A DNA stretch of 64,000 nucleotides from a virus (lineage: Duplodnaviria; Caudoviricetes), in the IMG/VR virus record IMGVR_UViG_3300021254_000033, positions 14,586-78,585 of that record; one strand, 5' to 3'. Positions 32,634-63,431 of the stretch are shown one piece after another. Position 1 is the stretch's first letter; each line of letters begins with the position of its first letter. Position numbers and translations under genes: made by a program. Below the pieces are notes generated by a model. The model did no database searches and was not told the origin of the DNA. It saw only the letters and a list, made by a program, of their open reading frames with translations.

Positions 32634-33742
32634 TATATCAATTTTCCTCCTACTAATTCCACTTTATTTCTTTCGTAGAATTCTTTAAATAAATTAGGAT
32701 AATTTTCTGCTACATAAAAGAAAAGAGTTTTTGCTTTTTCTTTTTTTATTACATTTTGAAATCCCGTAGTGGTTTCGGTTTTTAATAATCTACAATATCT
32801 ATATAAGGCATCTGTTATATCATAATTTTGATAAAAATTATTATATGCAGAAAACAACCGAATCAAATCTACGGTTTCTTGCGTAAGTAGAAAATTATCA
32901 CTAACGTCAAGTAAAATTTTTATATGATTGTTACAACAAAAGATGACCTGCCTAAAAATTTGTAATAATTCCTCTTCTAAAAAATGGTTAGCCGTGGACG
33001 AGGACGGGTAAGGGGAATAAATTATATGTAGTCCACGAATTTCTTTTGAGTAATTTGCCAAAGCGAAAAAATCTTCATCATTTAAAATCGTTGTTATTCT
33101 AAAATTTCCATATGATGATAATTGAATTTTTCGCCAATCTTCAAATTGTTTTAAATTTTTACAGCGAATAGGATATTTTGTTGCTAATCTAGTATTTTTA
33201 TTTTCATATTTAAGATTATAAAGTCCTTCTTCTATTACCACCCGCGCGCCTTCAACATTACTTAAATCATAATCATGTAAAAATAAAACATTTCTACTCC
33301 CCAATCTTTTTGTTTGGTCAATAAAGTATGGAGAAATATGTTTTTCATCAAGAGAAAGTCGTAGGTGTGCAGCATTTTTTAAAGTTATAAAAGCTAAAGT
33401 ATTATTTTTTAATTCATCTTCAAATAAATGTTTATACGGCAAATAAATACTAAAGTCCGCATCACAAGCCTCTATATCTTGTGCAAGAGGATGATATTTA
33501 TTATAAGAAAAAGCTAAACCACCATATTGAATATTATGATATTCACTTATTTCTTTTGGAAAAGTTCCATCATAATAATCTTTTCGTAGAAAAAATTGAG
33601 AATAACGGTCAGGTGAAATAGAGGGAGATAATACCACTATCTCCCTTTTTCTTTTATAATAAGTTGCTAATTTCATTAGTTCCAAGTTTGGAATTGTTTG
33701 ATGATATTTAAAAAAATCTTCGTCATAAAGTCCGATTGACAT
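32633..33742 (-). CDS. Hypothetical protein, possibly a degenerate radical-SAM family member
   Basis: N-terminus IGLYDED..PNLELMKLATYYK resembles phage IGLIDVD..PNLALMK proteins; no CxxxCxxC; TAATG-coupled to dnaE. Confidence 0.4.
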   Translation of the reverse strand: MSIGLYDEDFFKYHQTIPNLELMKLATYYKRKREIVVLSPSISPDRYSQFFLRKDYYDGTFPKEISEYHNIQYGGLAFSYNKYHPLAQDIEACDADFSIYLPYKHLFEDELKNNTLAFITLKNAAHLRLSLDEKHISPYFIDQTKRLGSRNVLFLHDYDLSNVEGARVVIEEGLYNLKYENKNTRLATKYPIRCKNLKQFEDWRKIQLSSYGNFRITTILNDEDFFALANYSKEIRGLHIIYSPYPSSSTANHFLEEELLQIFRQVIFCCNNHIKILLDVSDNFLLTQETVDLIRLFSAYNNFYQNYDITDALYRYCRLLKTETTTGFQNVIKKEKAKTLFFYVAENYPNLFKEFYERNKVELVGGKLI

Positions 33743-36700
33743 TATTCTTCACCTGTTCTTGCATATGTTTTAATATCCCCTTCTTCTGTTACCTCAGTTA
33801 TTTTTTCCACCAAATGCCAAGGTGTCCGAGAATATTTTTTTGCCTGAAAATCATTTTCTCTTCTAATACCAGTAATAATAAGTTTATTTCCTCTTTGAAA
33901 CATACTCTTTTCAATTACGTGTTTTTTACCATCGGCTCCGCGCTCACTAATTTGTCTATCATAATAAGTGAATACAGCTCCATAAATTTTAACCGTTACA
34001 ACACCTGTTTTTGTTAATAATGTGATACTTTTTCTTGATTTATCTTTATCTAATACTGTACCGATAATACGATGAATCTTAAATAAAGGAATTCTTTTTC
34101 CTTTTATATTAATAAAACGATCAACATCAGGCTCTTCACTAAGACTAAAAAAGTCTGAAAAACCATATTTCTCTTCATTCACTACCGCTAATTCATGTTC
34201 ATGAGAATAATATGAAACTGAATCCATTTCCCATTTACTTAAATTACCTAAACAATATTTATCCCAGGTATCTTTCATTAAACGGCTATTAACAGCTTCC
34301 AATAATTCAGCATTATGTTCTTTTACATAAGGACGTATAATATCCATCTGCTTTTTATAAATATTATCCCAGAACGTTTGTTTAATTTTGAATCCACTTT
34401 CTGTTTCCGCTGAAGATTCTAAATCATCTAAATCAAAAAATTTCTCATAAAAAGATAATCCAACATTATCTATTCCATAATAAGTATTATCTAATTTTTG
34501 TTTTTTAACATATTTGTTAAAATTATAAACACGTTTTTGTAAGTCATACTCATAAGGAATTAATCCAAAATCAATTAACATCTTCATATTTTGAAGAGTT
34601 ATTCTTTTCTTTTGGTCACTAATTGATGCAACGTATTTTTTCATTATCTCTTCTCTATCACCGAGAAAATCAAACGCCCCACTTTTAATTAAGTTTATAA
34701 CTTGAGGCTTTGTAATTTTTACCTTATTGGTTAAATCTTCTACTGAATTATACGGCCGCGCGCTCAGAATGTTTTTTACAACTTCATCTCCAACTTTACT
34801 AATACCACTTAATCCATAACGAATTGTATTGTGTTCAAGGTCTGGAGAAAAAGTATAAGTTGATTTATTAATGTCCGGCGGAGCAATTTGAATTCCCGCC
34901 ATTCTCATTTTTCCAATCGCAGTGGCAATCTTTCCATAATTCGTAGTTTTTTGTTTTTTCTTTTTTACAGTTTTACTTTCTTCTTCCTCATCATCTTCGC
35001 TTTCTTCATATTCAGCTCCAAAATCAACCATTTCGTCATAACACGTCGAATCTTCAATGTACTCTTCTTCCACTACTGAATCTTCTTCTATCCCACCGCT
35101 ATCACTAATTAAACAAGCACAATTCCAGAAAATTAATGGGTAACGATAAGCCAAATTCATTTCCTGAAGAGCGATTAATGAGTAAGCAAGAGTATGAGAT
35201 TTATTAAATCCATATCCTCTACTATATGCTACCAAAACTTGCCAAACATATCTACATAAATTTTTACTTAATCCTTTCTCTCTCATATTCGCATAATATT
35301 CTTCAGTTAATTTATCATATTCTGCAGGATTCTTTTTTGCGATAGATTTACGCAATCTATCTGCCCATGTTAAATCAAATCCTCCACATTCTGGTATCTG
35401 AACAAGTGTCATAAAACCTTCTTGACTTTCGCAAATACCATATGATAAATCTAATTCTTTATGCAGAATACTTTTTTCTTCCTCAGTTAATCCCCATTTT
35501 TCCATTTCCTCATTCCATAACTCAGGATTATTTTTAAATCTGGCAAATTTACTCAGCGGCTGCTCTGCCCCTCTTTCTTGCGCCATTAATCGAATTACAG
35601 AATTTAAAGTTGCCAAATCATCTACAGAAGATGGTTTTGCTAACGCTATCCCCTGAACTCCACTTTGCTGCTCCATTTGAAATAATGAAAAAATTTCATG
35701 ATTCCAAACCATTTTCCACATATTCGGGTCATCACGCTCAAGATTATAAATACCTACTACTGATTCATATGTTTCTCTCAAAGTGGATTTGCGTTCTACT
35801 AATCCGTTATCACATAACAAATCAAGACAAGTATGAATTTTATCCATAGCTTCAACTGATAATGCGTCATACTTAATTAAACTTACCGCTTCATCATCAT
35901 GAAGATCAAAGGCTGTAATAATAGTTCCATCTGGCGACCGCATTAATCCAGTGGAATTTGTAAAAGGTTCATCAACGAAAATAACTCCACCTGCGTGCGC
36001 GCCCAGTCTATTAACTAATCCTTCAATTTTTCGAGCTACTGTCCAAAGTTCAGGATAATTTTCTGTCATTTCAATTACAAATTGCTTAATTGGAGTGAAC
36101 CCACTTTCTTTATCACCGTACATACATTGATCCAATGTACGCACTAATCCTCTATCTGATGGAATTAAGGAAGAAATGTATGAAGCAATATCAACATCAA
36201 TTCCTAATCCTCTCGCAGCAGTTAATATTGCTGACTTTGATTTTTCAGTTCCAAAGGTTGCAACATTTGATACTCTATCATTACCATATACTTCTCTAAA
36301 TTTATTTAAAACAGTTGCTCTCCGCCCGCCTTCAATATCAAAATCTACATCCAATACAGATACACGATTTGGATTGAGAAAACGCCATGAAAAAGTTTTT
36401 GTTTTTTCTTTTAAAGGATTAATTTGAGTAATATCTAAAACATATAATAAAATAAAACCTACTCCAGAGCCTCTACCTGGTCCTACAATACTACCAGCAT
36501 CCCAACACACGTCAATAATATGTTGAAGATTTAAAATATAAGAAGACCAGCTTGCATTATTTACTTTTGAAGAAATTTTAATCATTTCAAGATTAGAATT
36601 AATTTCATTATATGCTTCTTCATTCTGTAAATCCGAATGTTTTTTAATTCCATCAATAATTTTATAAACCAAATAATAGTCACCTTTATCTTCTGATTTT

Positions 36701-37736
36701 ATAAAATCATTAAACATTGGAATTTTTTGACACCATTCATTTAGCTCTTTTTCTGTAATTTCATTATCTATTTTATTCCAAGTTAAAGTCGGGATTTTTA
36801 ATGATTTATTTAAATCGTAATCTTCACAACTATCAAAAATCCCTTGGATTGTTTTATATGCTTTTTCTAATTCTTCTTTTGACAAATAAGAAAAATATTT
36901 TTCTAATTCTTCTGTATTCATCATATAAGTTGAAGCATAAAAATCATCTACTTCTCTTTCTCCGTTTTGAGAATTGAGAAAAGCTTTATGAACAAATCTA
37001 TCATCTTTTTCTAAATAATGACTATCAGTCGTGATAATATATGGAATATCATACTCTTTTGAATGTTCAATTAACCATTTATTTACAAAGATTTGTTCTT
37101 CATTAAAACTTGGTTGCATCTCAAAAAAGAAGTTCCCGTGACCAAAAACTTCATCCATTTGAGTAATCCAAATTTTTATTTTTTCATATAACTCATTATC
37201 TTTTGTATCTCTCCAACGTAATAATTGTGTTGGGAGCGCGCCGCCTAAACAAGCAGTTGATCCAATTACATGACCTGGGTTTGCTCCAATTATATCAATC
37301 AAATCTTGATAATAAGTTGGAACTCTTCTCATACCACGAGCCATATAACTTCTCATCCAGGCGCGAGTAGATATTTCTCTAATTTGCTGATGACCAATCG
37401 CATCTTTAGCCAACAAAATAAAATGAAAGTATCTATCTACTCCTGATACAAAATTATTATTATTAAGACCATTTCGAGTTAAATAAATCTCATTACCTAA
37501 AACAACCTTAAAATTTGGGTGTTCTTTTTTAATTTTTTTATAATAATTTAATACTTTAATTGAATTACTAATACATTCATGATCAGTAATTGCTATACCA
37601 GAATGTCCAAGTTTAATAGCATAATCAATTAATTCATTTTCTTTTATAATACAGTCACGTAAACGAATATTACTAAATTGTGTATGGCTCCCTAATTATG
37701 AAGACTTCCGGGATATTCTTTAATCATAGTCTTCAT
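33742..37736 (-). CDS. dnaE: DNA polymerase III alpha subunit, frame broken by 8 nt (37687-37694) in the PHP motif
   Basis: MKTMIKEYPGSLHN then TAG; in another frame HTQFS..AITDH..GNEIY..HFILLAK continues without stops into 33742-37416; GPGRGS, DVDFD, HAGGV, YGFNKSH motifs. Confidence 0.9.
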
Positions 37737-37786
37737 TATTATCATCACCACCTTTCTTAAACTCTTTATCATTATCTTATATAATA

Positions 37787-37815
37787 ATTATACTATAAAT
37801 ACAGAAAAAAATCAA
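37787..37815 (-). promoter_or_regulatory. sigmaA-type promoter for dnaE
   Basis: TTGATT-N17-TATAAT. Confidence 0.8.
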
Positions 37816-37817
37816 GT

Positions 37818-39542
37818 TTAAAATCCAAATTTATTATCTTCTATTTGATATGCATCAATAAAAATTTGCGGAGTTTCTACTCCCATCCAACTATTTATAT
37901 TGGTTCTCCCTACTAAGTTCATCTTTATTTCATCATACTGCCCCAGTTCTTCAATTAAATCTTTCGCATGAAATTTCATATATGCAATACCAAATTTAGT
38001 AATCTTTAATGTGTCAGAATTTTTACCCATAATTTGGTAATCATCCCTTGTGATATTTAAATCGTGAATAAAAATTATTGGTTCTGGAGTATCTTGTCCC
38101 CAGCATTCTTCATATTTTCCTAAATCAAAAACTATATCCTGAATATCCTTATCTGCCGCAGAACGAACAAAATTTACTTCGTAAACCCCTTCTCCAAAAT
38201 CAATATCAGCTAGCTTATTATTAGCCCACTCATGAAAATTAAATAAATCTTTATCTGGGATAGAGCATCCAAAGGCATTATCATGCCCAGCAGTATATTC
38301 AAACATTTTACTTTCGTCTAAGAAATTTTTAAAAGAATCTAAAGCACTCTGATTCAAACCTCTCGCACTTCCTCTAACATACCCTTCATCATTTAACCTG
38401 GCTACAATAGTAGGCTTTTTAAATTTTGCTGCCAGCCGCATGGCACATAATCCATTCAACTCCGCAGGAAAATCATCTTCATCTTCTAACCGAATAAAAA
38501 GAATTTTATTTTCTAATAAATCATATTTAAATACTTTGGATTCTAATTTTACCATTGCATTATCCAATAATCTATTTTGTTTTGCTCTTGCATTGGTACA
38601 CTCTCTTACACTTTCAATCGCAGCATATTCCAATGTTCCTTTTGCACCACGTTTATTGGATGGAATTTTTTTCGTACCATCAACAAAAGCCATATATAAT
38701 CTTTCTTTTTCTTCCATAGTTCCAACTCTAATCATCGCATTAATCAAGGGAACAACATAGAAAGCCACTGTAATTGGATTAACCTTTCCTCCTGTCGAAT
38801 AACTTTGTTTATCTAAAACTGATTTAAAGAAGAAGTTTTTAATATTAGCTAATCCAGTTTTTGAAATATATCTATTTTCAATTTGAACCATTGAACCCAT
38901 ATCGCCAATGATACCTAATGCAGCTAAATCAATAAAATTATCTGCGAAATCTACTTCATATAAAGAATCTAAAACTCTGCAAAATTGATAAACCACTCCC
39001 GCGCCCGTTAAATCTTTATTTGGGTATCGTGAAGATAGTTGGTTATTTATAATTATTGCATTATCACTTAATGGAGTGTCTGTAATATGATGATCAAGAA
39101 CTAAACAAGGTAGATTAATTTCTTTTAACTGATCATGATATACCCCATCATTACTACTTGAGTCTGGGAGAATAATAAGACTATAGTTTTCTTGGTTATC
39201 TAAAATTTTATCAATATGGTCTTGAAGTCCATGCTGTTTATTCTCATGTAAAATATAATCAATTTCAATGGAGTTATCTATACAATGAATATACTGGTGC
39301 ATAATCGCTGCAGAAGTGAAGCCATCACAATCACTATCTACCACAATTAAAATTTTTCCCTTATTTTTTATTGTGTTCATTAGTAATTCCGCGCCCCGTG
39401 TTATATTATCAAATAATAGAGGGTCATTAAGACATTTTTTTGAAGGGGTTAGAAATTCATCTAAATCCATTACTCCTCTCGCTTTTAACAGCTCGCTTCC
39501 ATAATTCTTTTGAAAGTTTTCATTTACTAATTTAATCTGCAT
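37818..39542 (-). CDS. recJ: RecJ-like DHH ssDNA exonuclease
   Basis: DSDCDG, LPD, DHH, D..ALGIIGD, RGSAR, AGHDNAFG motifs. Confidence 0.9.
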   Translation of the reverse strand: MQIKLVNENFQKNYGSELLKARGVMDLDEFLTPSKKCLNDPLLFDNITRGAELLMNTIKNKGKILIVVDSDCDGFTSAAIMHQYIHCIDNSIEIDYILHENKQHGLQDHIDKILDNQENYSLIILPDSSSNDGVYHDQLKEINLPCLVLDHHITDTPLSDNAIIINNQLSSRYPNKDLTGAGVVYQFCRVLDSLYEVDFADNFIDLAALGIIGDMGSMVQIENRYISKTGLANIKNFFFKSVLDKQSYSTGGKVNPITVAFYVVPLINAMIRVGTMEEKERLYMAFVDGTKKIPSNKRGAKGTLEYAAIESVRECTNARAKQNRLLDNAMVKLESKVFKYDLLENKILFIRLEDEDDFPAELNGLCAMRLAAKFKKPTIVARLNDEGYVRGSARGLNQSALDSFKNFLDESKMFEYTAGHDNAFGCSIPDKDLFNFHEWANNKLADIDFGEGVYEVNFVRSAADKDIQDIVFDLGKYEECWGQDTPEPIIFIHDLNITRDDYQIMGKNSDTLKITKFGIAYMKFHAKDLIEELGQYDEIKMNLVGRTNINSWMGVETPQIFIDAYQIEDNKFGF

Positions 39543-47985: not shown

Positions 47986-49842
47986 CTATTCCCTTATTGT
48001 ACTAAAATCAACTTTTTCCATAATAAATTCACGTCTTGGCTCTACGTTTACTCCCATAAGACTATATAATAAATCAATCGCTTCTTCGTCATGTTCCAAT
48101 ACATCCATTCTCTGATATTCTTCGGTGAACATAGAAGCTCTTGCAGTTTCTGCAGGGAGTTCACCTAGTCCCTTAGCTCTTGTCACTTCTCCTTTGATTT
48201 TATTTCTAACTTTGCTAAATTCTTCATCAGTGAAATAATAACTTTCTTTTCCTTTGTTATCAATAATATAAAGAGGAGAACGTAGCCAACATAAGCGTCC
48301 TTCTTGAATAAACTCTGGAGCAAGATATTCTAATGCTGCCATTATCAAAAGACCGATATGACTTCCATCACTATCAGCATCCGTGCAGATTGCTATCCTT
48401 CCATAGCGCAGTTTTGAAGCGTTATATTTTCCTGGAACAATGTTCATTGCACTTAAAAGAAGTTTAATTTCTTCGTTTTTAAAAATCTTTTCTTCTGGAT
48501 TAGAAAGACAATTAATAATTTTACCTCTAATTGCTAAGATTCCATATTTTGTGTAATCTCTAGCCTGCGCAATGCCACCCATAGCAGAATTACCTTCGAC
48601 GATTAATAAAGTAGAATTTTCTCCCAAAAATTCAGCGTCTTTTAATTTATCAGAAGCAAAAACTTTTTTCTTTTGATTCTTTTCAATTTCCTTTGATGCT
48701 TCAAGAACTTGCTTTCTTGCTTTTTCTGCAGCAACTTCAGCTTTCATTTCTTTTGTTAGTAAGTCAAGAATTTTTTCAAACTCATCTTTATGTCGTTTTT
48801 CAAAATCCTCTAACATTTGAGTGGTTGCCCGCTGACAAAGCCCTCGAAGCTCTGGATTATTTACTTTTGTTTTTGTTTGATTAGCAAAAGAAGGATTTGG
48901 AACTTTACAACTAATTGCATAATAAAGTCCATTTCTTGCTATATCTGGAGTGAATATTCCTTTGAATTTCTTTTTGAAGAAGTTCGTTAAAGAAGTTTTT
49001 ACTCCCGTTAATGAAGTACCACCTTCACTATTTGCCAATCCATTTGTGAAAACGAACCATTTTTCGTTTCGGGCGGCCGCCCACTGCATAGCAATTTCAC
49101 ATTCCACTCCATTTTCTTCTAAGGTAATATGAAGAGGAGTTTTATGGATCGGCTTTGTAATATTATCTTTTAAAAAATCTATAAGTCCATTTGAAGATTT
49201 GTAGATTACTTTTTCATTAGTTAAATTATTAATTAGTATAAATTCAACACCTTTAGTTAAATAAGACCAATTTTTACACATTTCTAATAAGTCTTCAAAG
49301 TGAATTTCTATTGGTTCTAAATTATATACTTCAGGTGAGGGGATAAAAGTAACAACTGTTCCATGTTGATTTTTATCTTTAGAATCTTCTATGGAAAAAC
49401 TTTCTTTTACACCTTCTTTTAAAATCAAAGTTGCGTGTTTACCATCTCTAAAAGAATCTGCCTGAAAATAAGAAGATGAGAGCGCCACACCTTTGGAGCC
49501 AATGCCATTCATTCCCGCAACATTTTGGTAAACTTTTTCATTAAATTTACCACCAGTGTGCGGTAAAGTGTAGATTGCTTCCATTGCTTCACTACCATCT
49601 TCACGAATTCCAAAAGGCACTCCTCTTGCATTATCTGTTACGGTAATCATATTATTTTTATCTAACTCAACAATAATTTGATCCCCGTATCCCATAGTTG
49701 CCTCATCTATGGAGTTGGTGATTAGTTCTCGTACGCATTGAAGAACGCCTTGGTTGTCTGCACTTCCCATATACATAGCAACCCTCGTTCTGACTGCGTC
49801 TAGAAAGGATAGCGTTTCTATGTTATTTGCGTTGTATTCCAT
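47986..49842 (-). CDS. gyrB: DNA gyrase subunit B
   Basis: ELITNSIDE, DNARGVP, HTGGKF, GMNGIG, VEGNSA, IRGKIIN, DADSDG; start moved to ATG 49842 (AAGGAGG RBS). Confidence 0.93.
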   Translation of the reverse strand: MEYNANNIETLSFLDAVRTRVAMYMGSADNQGVLQCVRELITNSIDEATMGYGDQIIVELDKNNMITVTDNARGVPFGIREDGSEAMEAIYTLPHTGGKFNEKVYQNVAGMNGIGSKGVALSSSYFQADSFRDGKHATLILKEGVKESFSIEDSKDKNQHGTVVTFIPSPEVYNLEPIEIHFEDLLEMCKNWSYLTKGVEFILINNLTNEKVIYKSSNGLIDFLKDNITKPIHKTPLHITLEENGVECEIAMQWAAARNEKWFVFTNGLANSEGGTSLTGVKTSLTNFFKKKFKGIFTPDIARNGLYYAISCKVPNPSFANQTKTKVNNPELRGLCQRATTQMLEDFEKRHKDEFEKILDLLTKEMKAEVAAEKARKQVLEASKEIEKNQKKKVFASDKLKDAEFLGENSTLLIVEGNSAMGGIAQARDYTKYGILAIRGKIINCLSNPEEKIFKNEEIKLLLSAMNIVPGKYNASKLRYGRIAICTDADSDGSHIGLLIMAALEYLAPEFIQEGRLCWLRSPLYIIDNKGKESYYFTDEEFSKVRNKIKGEVTRAKGLGELPAETARASMFTEEYQRMDVLEHDEEAIDLLYSLMGVNVEPRREFIMEKVDFSTIRE

Positions 49843-49867
49843 CTTTACCTCCTTACTATATATAATT

Positions 49868-49896
49868 ATTATACTATAAAAAGTGAAAAAATGCAA
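49868..49896 (-). promoter_or_regulatory. sigmaA-type promoter for gyrB
   Basis: TTGCAT-N17-TATAAT. Confidence 0.8.
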
Positions 49897-49979
49897 ATTT
49901 AATTAAAGTATTGTAGAAAATATAGAAAAAAATACTTAATTATAGGAGTTTTAATTTTATAAAATAAAAGGAGGAAGTA

Positions 49980-63345: not shown

Positions 63346-63431
63346 GGAGAGGTACTCAAGTGGTTAAGAGGACGGTTTGCTAAACCGTTAGGTCGCAAGG
63401 TACGTGGGTTCGAATCCCACTCTCTCCGCCA
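63346..63431 (+). tRNA. tRNA-Ser(GCT)
   Basis: ACGGT-TTGCTAA-ACCGT; long variable arm; G73; CCA. Confidence 0.95.

Follow-up and report, generated by a model that had tools for sequence, protein, structure and literature searches.

In the 64,000-nt stretch of phage DNA analyzed here (the window; positions 14,586-78,585 of IMG/VR record IMGVR_UViG_3300021254_000033), the polymerase gene dnaE, on the minus strand, is broken after codon 14 by an 8-nt insert that opens with a stop codon. The parent is a 78.6-kb phage contig assembled from a metagenome, with an estimated completeness of 67%. Our comparison with related loci indicates that the break is most likely the site of a programmed short-range translational bypass, borne by a homing-endonuclease cassette and constituting an independent analogue of the T4 gene 60/MobA arrangement. 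A preliminary description of the locus had listed a programmed bypass, a mini-intron or excision scar and an inactivating lesion as candidate explanations, and it is the bypass that the comparative evidence backs. The elements of the interrupted gene, in window coordinates and including those of its open reading frames (ORFs), are as follows.

37746..37755, minus strand: Shine–Dalgarno (SD)-like sequence AAAGGTGGTG, preceding ATG 37736
37695..37736, minus strand: mini-ORF of 14 codons, MKTMIKEYPGSLHN, running from ATG 37736 up to TAG 37694-37692
37728..37736, minus strand: 5′ arm of the predicted hairpin, AUGAAGACU, start codon included
37698..37706, minus strand: 3′ arm of the predicted hairpin, AGUCUUCAU, consisting of the Ser-Leu-His codons and abutting the take-off codon
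37695..37697, minus strand: proposed take-off codon AAT (Asn14), immediately preceding the stop; the take-off codon has this place in each of the 17 gap configurations described below
37692..37694, minus strand: TAG stop, in the A site at the proposed take-off
37690..37694, minus strand: untranslated gap TAGGG between the proposed take-off and landing codons
37687..37689, minus strand: proposed landing codon AGC, near-cognate for tRNA-Asn; the corresponding codon is AAT in locus L131 and again AGC in loci of the L040 type
33742..37686, minus strand: main dnaE frame, from the resume codon CAT (His) to its stop, with PHP, DNA_pol3_alpha, finger and HHH_6 domains

The coordinates of the break in the preliminary description held, as did its reading that an 8-nt, stop-containing gap splits the HxH motif of the PHP domain and that its deletion gives SLHNHTQFS. 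The 8 nt (TAGGGAGC, 37694-37687) are followed from 37686 by CAT ACA CAA TTT AGT (HTQFS), and the main frame, which is −1 relative to the mini-ORF, extends over 1317 codons to its stop at 33742. As also reported earlier, this frame is closed just before the gap, by a TAA overlapping CAT-AAT, and offers no start for about 90 codons, its first ATG, GTG or TTG being TTG 37416, 90 codons downstream. At the position of the break, uninterrupted phage homologues read (F/S)(I/L)HNH(T/S)..SN.RLRD; an 8-nt skip therefore restores the canonical PHP start SLHNHTQFSN. The Pfam PHP model aligns to the main ORF from profile position 5 onward, the earlier positions having no counterpart, and these absent positions are where uninterrupted relatives carry the first His of HxH. 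We read the mini-ORF as encoding the true DnaE N-terminus, to which the first His of HxH belongs.

The gap is real, and protein-level selection on the gene outlasted its acquisition. A separate IMG/VR contig (L007) is 99.25% identical to the window over 3987 nt, with 30 substitutions, no indel and the identical 8 nt; the recurrence of these 8 nt in an independent contig argues against an assembly error. Since both sequences are gapped, their differences postdate acquisition of the gap. Within the main dnaE frame these comprise 15 synonymous changes and a single conservative nonsynonymous one (I>V), and in the adjacent RecJ-like gene the synonymous to nonsynonymous ratio is 10:1. The 15:1 synonymous excess after acquisition therefore indicates that the interrupted frame stayed under protein-level selection, leaving the inactivating lesion considered in the preliminary description unsupported. 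Across 15 distinct cassettes, the mini-ORF codons for YPGSLHN(H..YS) show free synonymous variation (Pro CCC/CCT/CCA; Gly GGA/GGT; Ser AGT/TCT/TCG; Leu CTT/TTG/TTA/CTC), and the sole replacements (Y/F, L/V and S/T) are ones that also occur in uninterrupted genes. The mini-ORF is thus probably translated as part of DnaE.

Searches through viral and metagenome contigs recovered 160 loci, of which four that did not reach the 5′ end were dropped; the remaining 156, together with the window, made up a set of 157. In the alignment of these dnaE 5′ ends, a comparison that the preliminary description had suggested, 46 loci (the window counted) proved to be interrupted near the same place, in 17 configurations and with a predicted hairpin in every mini-ORF, and 111 were uninterrupted. 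The breaks follow the first His, the Asn, the second His or the Ser of YPGSLHNH..YS and require shifts of 7, 8, 10, 11 or 12 nt. Landing positions were set solely by collinearity of the joined protein with uninterrupted DnaE, and a collinear joined product was obtained in all 46 interrupted loci. The configurations, written as take-off codon, gap (lower case) and landing codon, are given below.

After Asn: AAT-tagg-AAC, shift of 7 nt (L128)
After Asn: AAT-taggg-AAT, shift of 8 nt (L131)
After Asn: AAT-taggg-AGC, shift of 8 nt (the window and L007)
After Asn: AAC-tagggtg-AAC or AAC-tagggtg-AGC, shift of 10 nt
After Asn: AAC-tagggtt-AAT, shift of 10 nt
After Asn: AAC-tagggttg-AAC (L016) and AAC-tagggtta-AAC, shift of 11 nt
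After the first His: CAT-tgacc-CAA and CAT-tagtt-CAA, shift of 8 nt
After the first His: CAT-tagtttatt-CAT and two variants, shift of 12 nt, in frame
After the second His: CAT-tagtggag-TAT, shift of 11 nt
After Ser: TCT-tagcg-TCA, shift of 8 nt
After Ser: TCT-taggtga-TCC and TCT-taaacga-ACT, shift of 10 nt

A stop lies directly 3′ of the take-off codon in each of the 17 configurations; it is TAG, save for one TGA and one TAA. The take-off and landing codons largely match: they agree in at least two of three nucleotides in 16 of the 17 configurations and are identical in seven, whereas at control (neighbouring) offsets the same match is reached by 0-5 of 17, with no identical pair. Identical or synonymous pairs account for 11 configurations, and the other relatives show one mismatch each. 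The sole configuration below the two-of-three match is AAT/AGC of the window, in which AGC could pair with tRNA-Asn through a G·U pair at the middle position. The preliminary description had held against a classical hop that no matched take-off/landing pair restores HxH; for the window this stands insofar as AGC is only near-cognate, but the cassette relatives have cognate pairs, which largely resolves the objection. AGC in place of AAY is the landing codon in two cassette lineages, that of the window (shift of 8 nt) and the L040 type (L040, L041, L105, L123 and L124; shift of 10 nt), a recurrence suggesting that this codon is tolerated or favoured at the landing site.

Between close relatives, the only differences are indels within the gap (tagg, taggg, tagggtg, tagggttg); the Asn codons on either side are retained. 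Among cassettes that differ solely in this way, the required shifts take all three values modulo 3; with all three frames needed at one site, no single frameshift mechanism fits, and a frame-independent hop does. The persistence of codon matching across these indels argues that the matching is maintained.

The pairing of the start-codon region that the preliminary description had pointed out was confirmed, with ATGAAGACT (37736-37728) perfectly complementing AGTCTTCAT (37706-37698). The 91-nt region of the window folds at −18.5 kcal/mol (z = −2.7), a value matched by one of 200 shuffled sequences. In predicted folds, all interrupted mini-ORFs form a single hairpin between the AUG region and the sequence ending 0-3 nt before the stop, and the stem covers part or all of the take-off codon in most variants. 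Median minimum free energies (MFEs) are −11.6 kcal/mol for the His/Asn types versus −4.7 kcal/mol for the equivalent regions of uninterrupted genes (Mann–Whitney p = 2e-6), and −15.4 versus −6.1 kcal/mol for the Ser types (p = 1e-4). The two arms also covary. In the His/Asn types, 83% of the alignment cells in the stem are paired, versus 31-50% with the partner columns slid, and one AU↔GC compensatory pair is split 6:5; in the Ser types, 92% are paired and three pairs are altered on both sides. Here, Asp-Tyr-Ser codons beside the gap replace the Ser-Leu-His codons as the 3′ arm, and the 5′ arm is changed to match (arm pairs GAAUAAUC/GAUUAUUC, GAAAAAUC/GAUUUUUC and GAAUAGUC/GACUAUUC). The structure thus follows the take-off site, and complementarity between the arms appears to dictate residues 2-4, which are not conserved (MKT.., MNN..). 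By eye, hop length showed no clear relation to stem length.

In a tree built from the DnaE body with the gap region excluded, the interrupted loci are scattered and at least 12 changes are needed to explain their distribution, which rules out a single origin of the gap. Near-identical polymerases occur with and without the gap (L073, L022) and with different gap types (L016/L031, L040/L042); the members of such pairs are ~100% identical beyond the landing codon and share no identity ahead of it, the break coinciding exactly with the gap. Endonuclease genes are associated with the gaps in a type-specific manner. A GIY-YIG+HTH family with 63-69% mutual identity lies directly upstream of 19 His/Asn-type gaps and is only 24-28% identical to the GIY-YIG genes near uninterrupted dnaE, and an HNH family with 66-67% mutual identity lies directly upstream of 11 Ser-type gaps, with no exception to this correspondence between endonuclease family and gap position. 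Overall, a cassette endonuclease is found directly upstream in 30 of 46 interrupted versus 1 of 111 uninterrupted loci (L159), counts that include near-duplicate contigs and so do not represent independent events. The stop of the endonuclease gene overlaps the start of the mini-ORF. Taken together, the loci display the traits of a free-standing homing-endonuclease cassette that disrupts its presumed target site, namely an adjacent endonuclease, a mosaic boundary at the gap and a patchy distribution on the tree. In isolated phages, the cassette endonucleases found matches of only 35% identity or lower.

The single uninterrupted dnaE with a gap-type GIY-YIG gene upstream is that of L159, where the endonuclease gene (L159:704-1402) ends 99 nt before the second His codon and the motif reads SIHNH; its target may be a variant that escapes cleavage without a gap. 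A further group of endonuclease genes, those at L037:720-1448, L131:731-1441 and L042:817-1446 (also in L119 and L126), carry four in-frame TAG codons each, mostly where homologues have Gln. Decay of the L037, L131 and L042 genes was considered and rejected, as they are intact if TAG encodes Gln. In these five phages TAG thus appears to be decoded as Gln, and TAG is also the stop in their dnaE gap; if so, hopping would compete with suppression, and this competition could serve as an early/late switch.

No homologue of the cassette GIY-YIG protein was found in the 78.6-kb contig (67% complete). With a RecJ-like gene upstream of dnaE and no cassette nuclease in the contig, the window therefore represents a solo bypass module. 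The sequence around its SD, AAAGGTGGTGATGATAAT, resembles the 3′ ends of cassette endonuclease genes (..KEGDAK*, ..KGGDANE*), with ~67-95% identity over 18-27 nt, and may be a relic of a lost endonuclease gene. L131 has the same 5-nt gap, the cognate landing codon AAT and a retained GIY-YIG gene.

In the mechanism that we propose, ribosomes would initiate at ATG 37736, translate 14 codons and stall, the P site being occupied by peptidyl-tRNA-Asn on AAU (37697-37695) and the A site by UAG. The tRNA would then unpair, the mRNA would slide by 8 nt, and the tRNA would re-pair with AGC (37689-37687), whereupon decoding would resume at CAU 37686 to give full-length DnaE (...YPGSLHN-HTQFSNIRLRD...) with the predicted junction peptide EYPGSLHNHTQFSNIR. 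At the stall, the 3′ arm of the hairpin would lie inside the ribosome and the 5′ arm would already be out, such that re-pairing of the arms behind the ribosome could favour take-off and draw the mRNA forward; as most variants have the take-off codon partly or wholly within the stem, this re-pairing would also favour codon–anticodon dissociation. Across the family, the tRNA would land on the first acceptable codon 7-12 nt further on, and the next codon would be decoded. The cassette itself would have originated as an endonuclease gene, its own ribosome-binding site (RBS), a replacement dnaE 5′ end and then the gap. By interrupting the presumed target of the endonuclease in the conserved HxH-coding DNA, the gap may confer immunity on its carrier while the polymerase stays expressible. 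In the window phage, the endonuclease gene would later have been lost and the bypass module would have persisted. More generally, we think it likely that gut/rumen phages harbor mobile, endonuclease-borne stop-hop modules that efficiently skip 7-12 nt after only 11-18 codons, are driven by hairpin refolding in place of a long nascent-peptide signal and tolerate near-cognate landing (AAU to AGC). If true, bacterial ribosomes would here have their first natural system of short-range bypassing apart from T4 gene 60, natural in-frame stop-hops included.

Several alternatives were weighed against bypassing. A −1 frameshift at AAU-UAG would read UUA GGG AGC and yield ...SLHN-LGS-HTQFS..., placing three extra residues within HxH; the main frame does lie at −1 to the mini-ORF, and just these three codons are open in it. 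A stop in the A site and an SD-like sequence close by, here GGGAG, are both known to stimulate frameshifting. We nevertheless regard this as unlikely, as the site lacks a slippery heptamer and re-pairing of AAU on UAA is impossible, and as the cassettes that differ only by indels would need +1 frameshifting (7, 10), −1 frameshifting (8, 11) or readthrough (12) at one and the same site. The frameshift products would further insert 2-4 variable extra residues into a metal-binding motif whose spacing is invariant in all 111 uninterrupted relatives, and in L064 a stop closes the main frame immediately ahead of the landing codon. An alternative genetic code was rejected for the window phage: its large structural genes are intact under table 11, treating TAG or TGA as sense merges nothing meaningful, and recoding cannot repair a frame change. 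No suppressor tRNA was found in this phage, which uses the standard code.

The joined product is predicted from sequence comparison, and the gene might instead undergo no readthrough at all, yielding an N-terminally truncated DnaE by re-initiation or surviving as a tolerated pseudogene with other polymerases replicating the genome. For re-initiation speaks the GTG or TTG that lies in frame just before the landing codon in L016, L032, L040 and L023; the window, however, has no main-frame start for 90 codons, most variants likewise lack one, and a truncated protein would lose the first PHP strand along with the first His. The 15 synonymous to one nonsynonymous changes in the main frame since gap acquisition and a mini-ORF peptide conserved through synonymous changes across diverged cassettes also speak against this explanation, which we consider improbable. 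RNA-level removal of the 8 nt, through a micro-intron or editing, would be aided by a hairpin that brings both sides of the mini-ORF together, but no known bacterial or phage splicing system excises 5-12 nt. The excised piece would also lack any sequence or structure shared by the 17 configurations (a span this short was not searched against Rfam), which likewise leaves the mini-intron or excision scar of the preliminary description without support; a mixed DNA population is contradicted by the agreement of two independent assemblies, and we judge this whole class of explanations very improbable. The metagenomic origin and ~67% completeness of the contig could point to an assembly or sequencing artefact, for which the probability is negligible given the identical gap in a second contig differing by 30 substitutions and the homologous gaps in 46 loci from many samples.

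Other observations weigh against programmed bypassing itself. The support for it is comparative throughout. The codon matches may stem from duplication of the target 5′ codons in the cassette, and in some uninterrupted relatives the native Pro-Gly-Ser codons (CCAGGGAGC) are similar to the gap sequence AGGGAGC; given this possible duplication origin, codon matching alone is weaker evidence than it appears. The SD-like GGGAG that the preliminary description noted in the gap is present in the window but is found in only some variants, just about half of the configurations having an SD-like sequence there. Covariation in the hairpin is based on few independent lineages (11 distinct rows for the His/Asn and 6 for the Ser types), and since the hairpin hides the start codon, it might instead control initiation or play another regulatory role. 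As AGC is not cognate to AAU, efficiency in the window may be low. Short peptidyl-tRNAs are prone to drop-off, and a nascent chain of just 14 residues makes an anchor like the nascent peptide of gene 60 impossible. We take the lack of a ~30-residue nascent-peptide signal as a mechanistic difference rather than as evidence against hopping.

The bypass of T4 gene 60 and the MobA cassette were reportedly the subject of studies by Huang in 1988 and Bonocora in 2011. In that system, the endonuclease ORF overlaps the new start, a replacement copy of the target coding sequence is present, and the bypass cassette ends at the landing codon (bioRxiv 10.1101/2022.08.31.505936); pairing of the exiting mRNA has been proposed to drive forward bypassing of gene 60 (bioRxiv 10.1101/2024.12.09.627546), a model on which the mechanism suggested above for dnaE is patterned. 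According to a 2016 review, shorter matched-codon counterparts had long been presumed but not found, and no natural in-frame stop-hop was known (PMC5009743). The interrupted dnaE loci resemble T4 gene 60 (PMC5009743) in the stop directly 3′ of the take-off codon, the largely matching take-off and landing codons (only near-cognate in the window) and an mRNA structure that involves the take-off codon. With the gene 60/MobA arrangement they share the free-standing endonuclease overlapping the new start, the replacement target copy and the insert ending at the landing codon, and with MobA the presumed protection of the carrier genome from its own nuclease. They differ from T4 gene 60 in that the host gene is dnaE instead of a topoisomerase subunit gene, and from MobA in that the endonucleases belong to the unrelated GIY-YIG+HTH and HNH families, no homology to the gene 60 cassette being seen or expected. 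Furthermore, the dnaE gap measures 4-9 nt (shift 7-12) rather than 50 nt, the hop would occur after 11-18 codons and thus allow no long nascent-peptide signal, the structure is a 5′ hairpin spanning the whole mini-ORF, and near-cognate landing codons appear to be tolerated. No stem-loop 3′ of the dnaE take-off codon was seen, although none was specifically sought.

The stop-hops of 1987, as far as they are recounted in PMC5009743, were likewise short, frame-independent hops of a P-site tRNA over a slow A-site stop to a matching codon, and the 12-nt in-frame dnaE variants (CAT-tagtttatt-CAT) would formally be stop-hops. By the same account, those of 1987 had low efficiency and involved synthetic constructs, whereas the dnaE sites are natural, conserved, located in an essential-type gene and equipped with a dedicated hairpin. 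The Streptomyces phage terminase candidates (PMC10732093; PMC5009743) compare in their short coding gap, phage gene, proposed SD contribution and candidate status, but depend on a rare UUA codon, are proposed to be regulatory and have neither a homing-endonuclease link nor a start-to-take-off hairpin. In the mitochondria of Magnusiomyces capitatus, byp elements are inserts of 27-55 nt found genome-wide and skipped in mitochondrial translation, apparently independently of context (PMC5009743); the dnaE gaps, by contrast, form a single site class in one gene, with bacterial ribosomes and specific signals. Full-text literature searches turned up bypassing in gene 60 with its homologues, in the candidates from Streptomyces phages and in mitochondria of yeasts; bypassing in dnaE was not found there, which does not prove it unpublished. 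Among isolated phages, the nearest DnaE proteins are ~42% identical and uninterrupted, and no laboratory model was found.

For bacterial ribosomes, programmed bypassing has essentially been studied in a single case, that of T4 gene 60 with its homologues. The dnaE family supplies 17 natural variants of a putative minimal signal of ~50 nt (start, hairpin, take-off, stop, gap and landing), which open to test the minimal take-off and landing needs, the contribution of mRNA re-folding and the tolerance of landing mismatches. It would also provide a second, independent case of homing endonucleases shielding their carrier through a break in the target gene that translation repairs. For annotation, the consequence is that gene callers will label such polymerases as truncated or as pseudogenes.

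The gene neighbours of dnaE in the window are those for the RecJ-like exonuclease, DnaB and NrdD, and the features immediately upstream of the mini-ORF are as follows.

37818..39542, minus strand: RecJ-like DHH exonuclease gene, the upstream neighbour, not an endonuclease
37787..37815, minus strand: promoter-like TTGATT-17-TATAAT with 10/12 consensus matches, identified by consensus match alone

The promoter and RBS that the preliminary description had placed upstream of the mini-ORF have their candidates in this consensus match, which lies within the 81 nt separating the RecJ-like gene from the mini-ORF, and in the SD-like AAAGGTGGTG. A 60-nt stretch at ~49842-49902 (G000:C1:64427-64487) is 79% identical to the promoter-like region and probably represents a repeated early promoter. 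A terminator-like hairpin with a T run is present at 37870-37883 (minus strand), within the 3′ end of the RecJ-like gene and ~50 nt before its stop. The phage also encodes a tRNA-Ser(GCU) at 63346-63431 (plus strand), clustered with tRNA-Met, Gln, Trp and Ile(UAU), that reads AGC, the proposed landing codon, and AGU, which occurs in the hairpin arm.

Related loci show further irregularities in dnaE. In L032 and L111, which carry the Asn-type gap, codon 41 after the landing site is a single in-frame TAG where relatives have Trp (HESISG*VKAE versus HESISGWVKAE); either a lesion or recoding could account for it. Later breaks with several mixed stops occur in L035 (after codon 413), L011-L013, L046/L047, L057, L066, L078 and others, and are probably introns or other endonuclease insertions; in this group of phages, dnaE seems to be a mobile-element hot spot. 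Finally, the uninterrupted loci L049, L051 and L134 have at least eight in-frame TAG codons in dnaE (from position 1501), the first of them at the Gln site of L035, and appear to derive from TAG-recoded phages.

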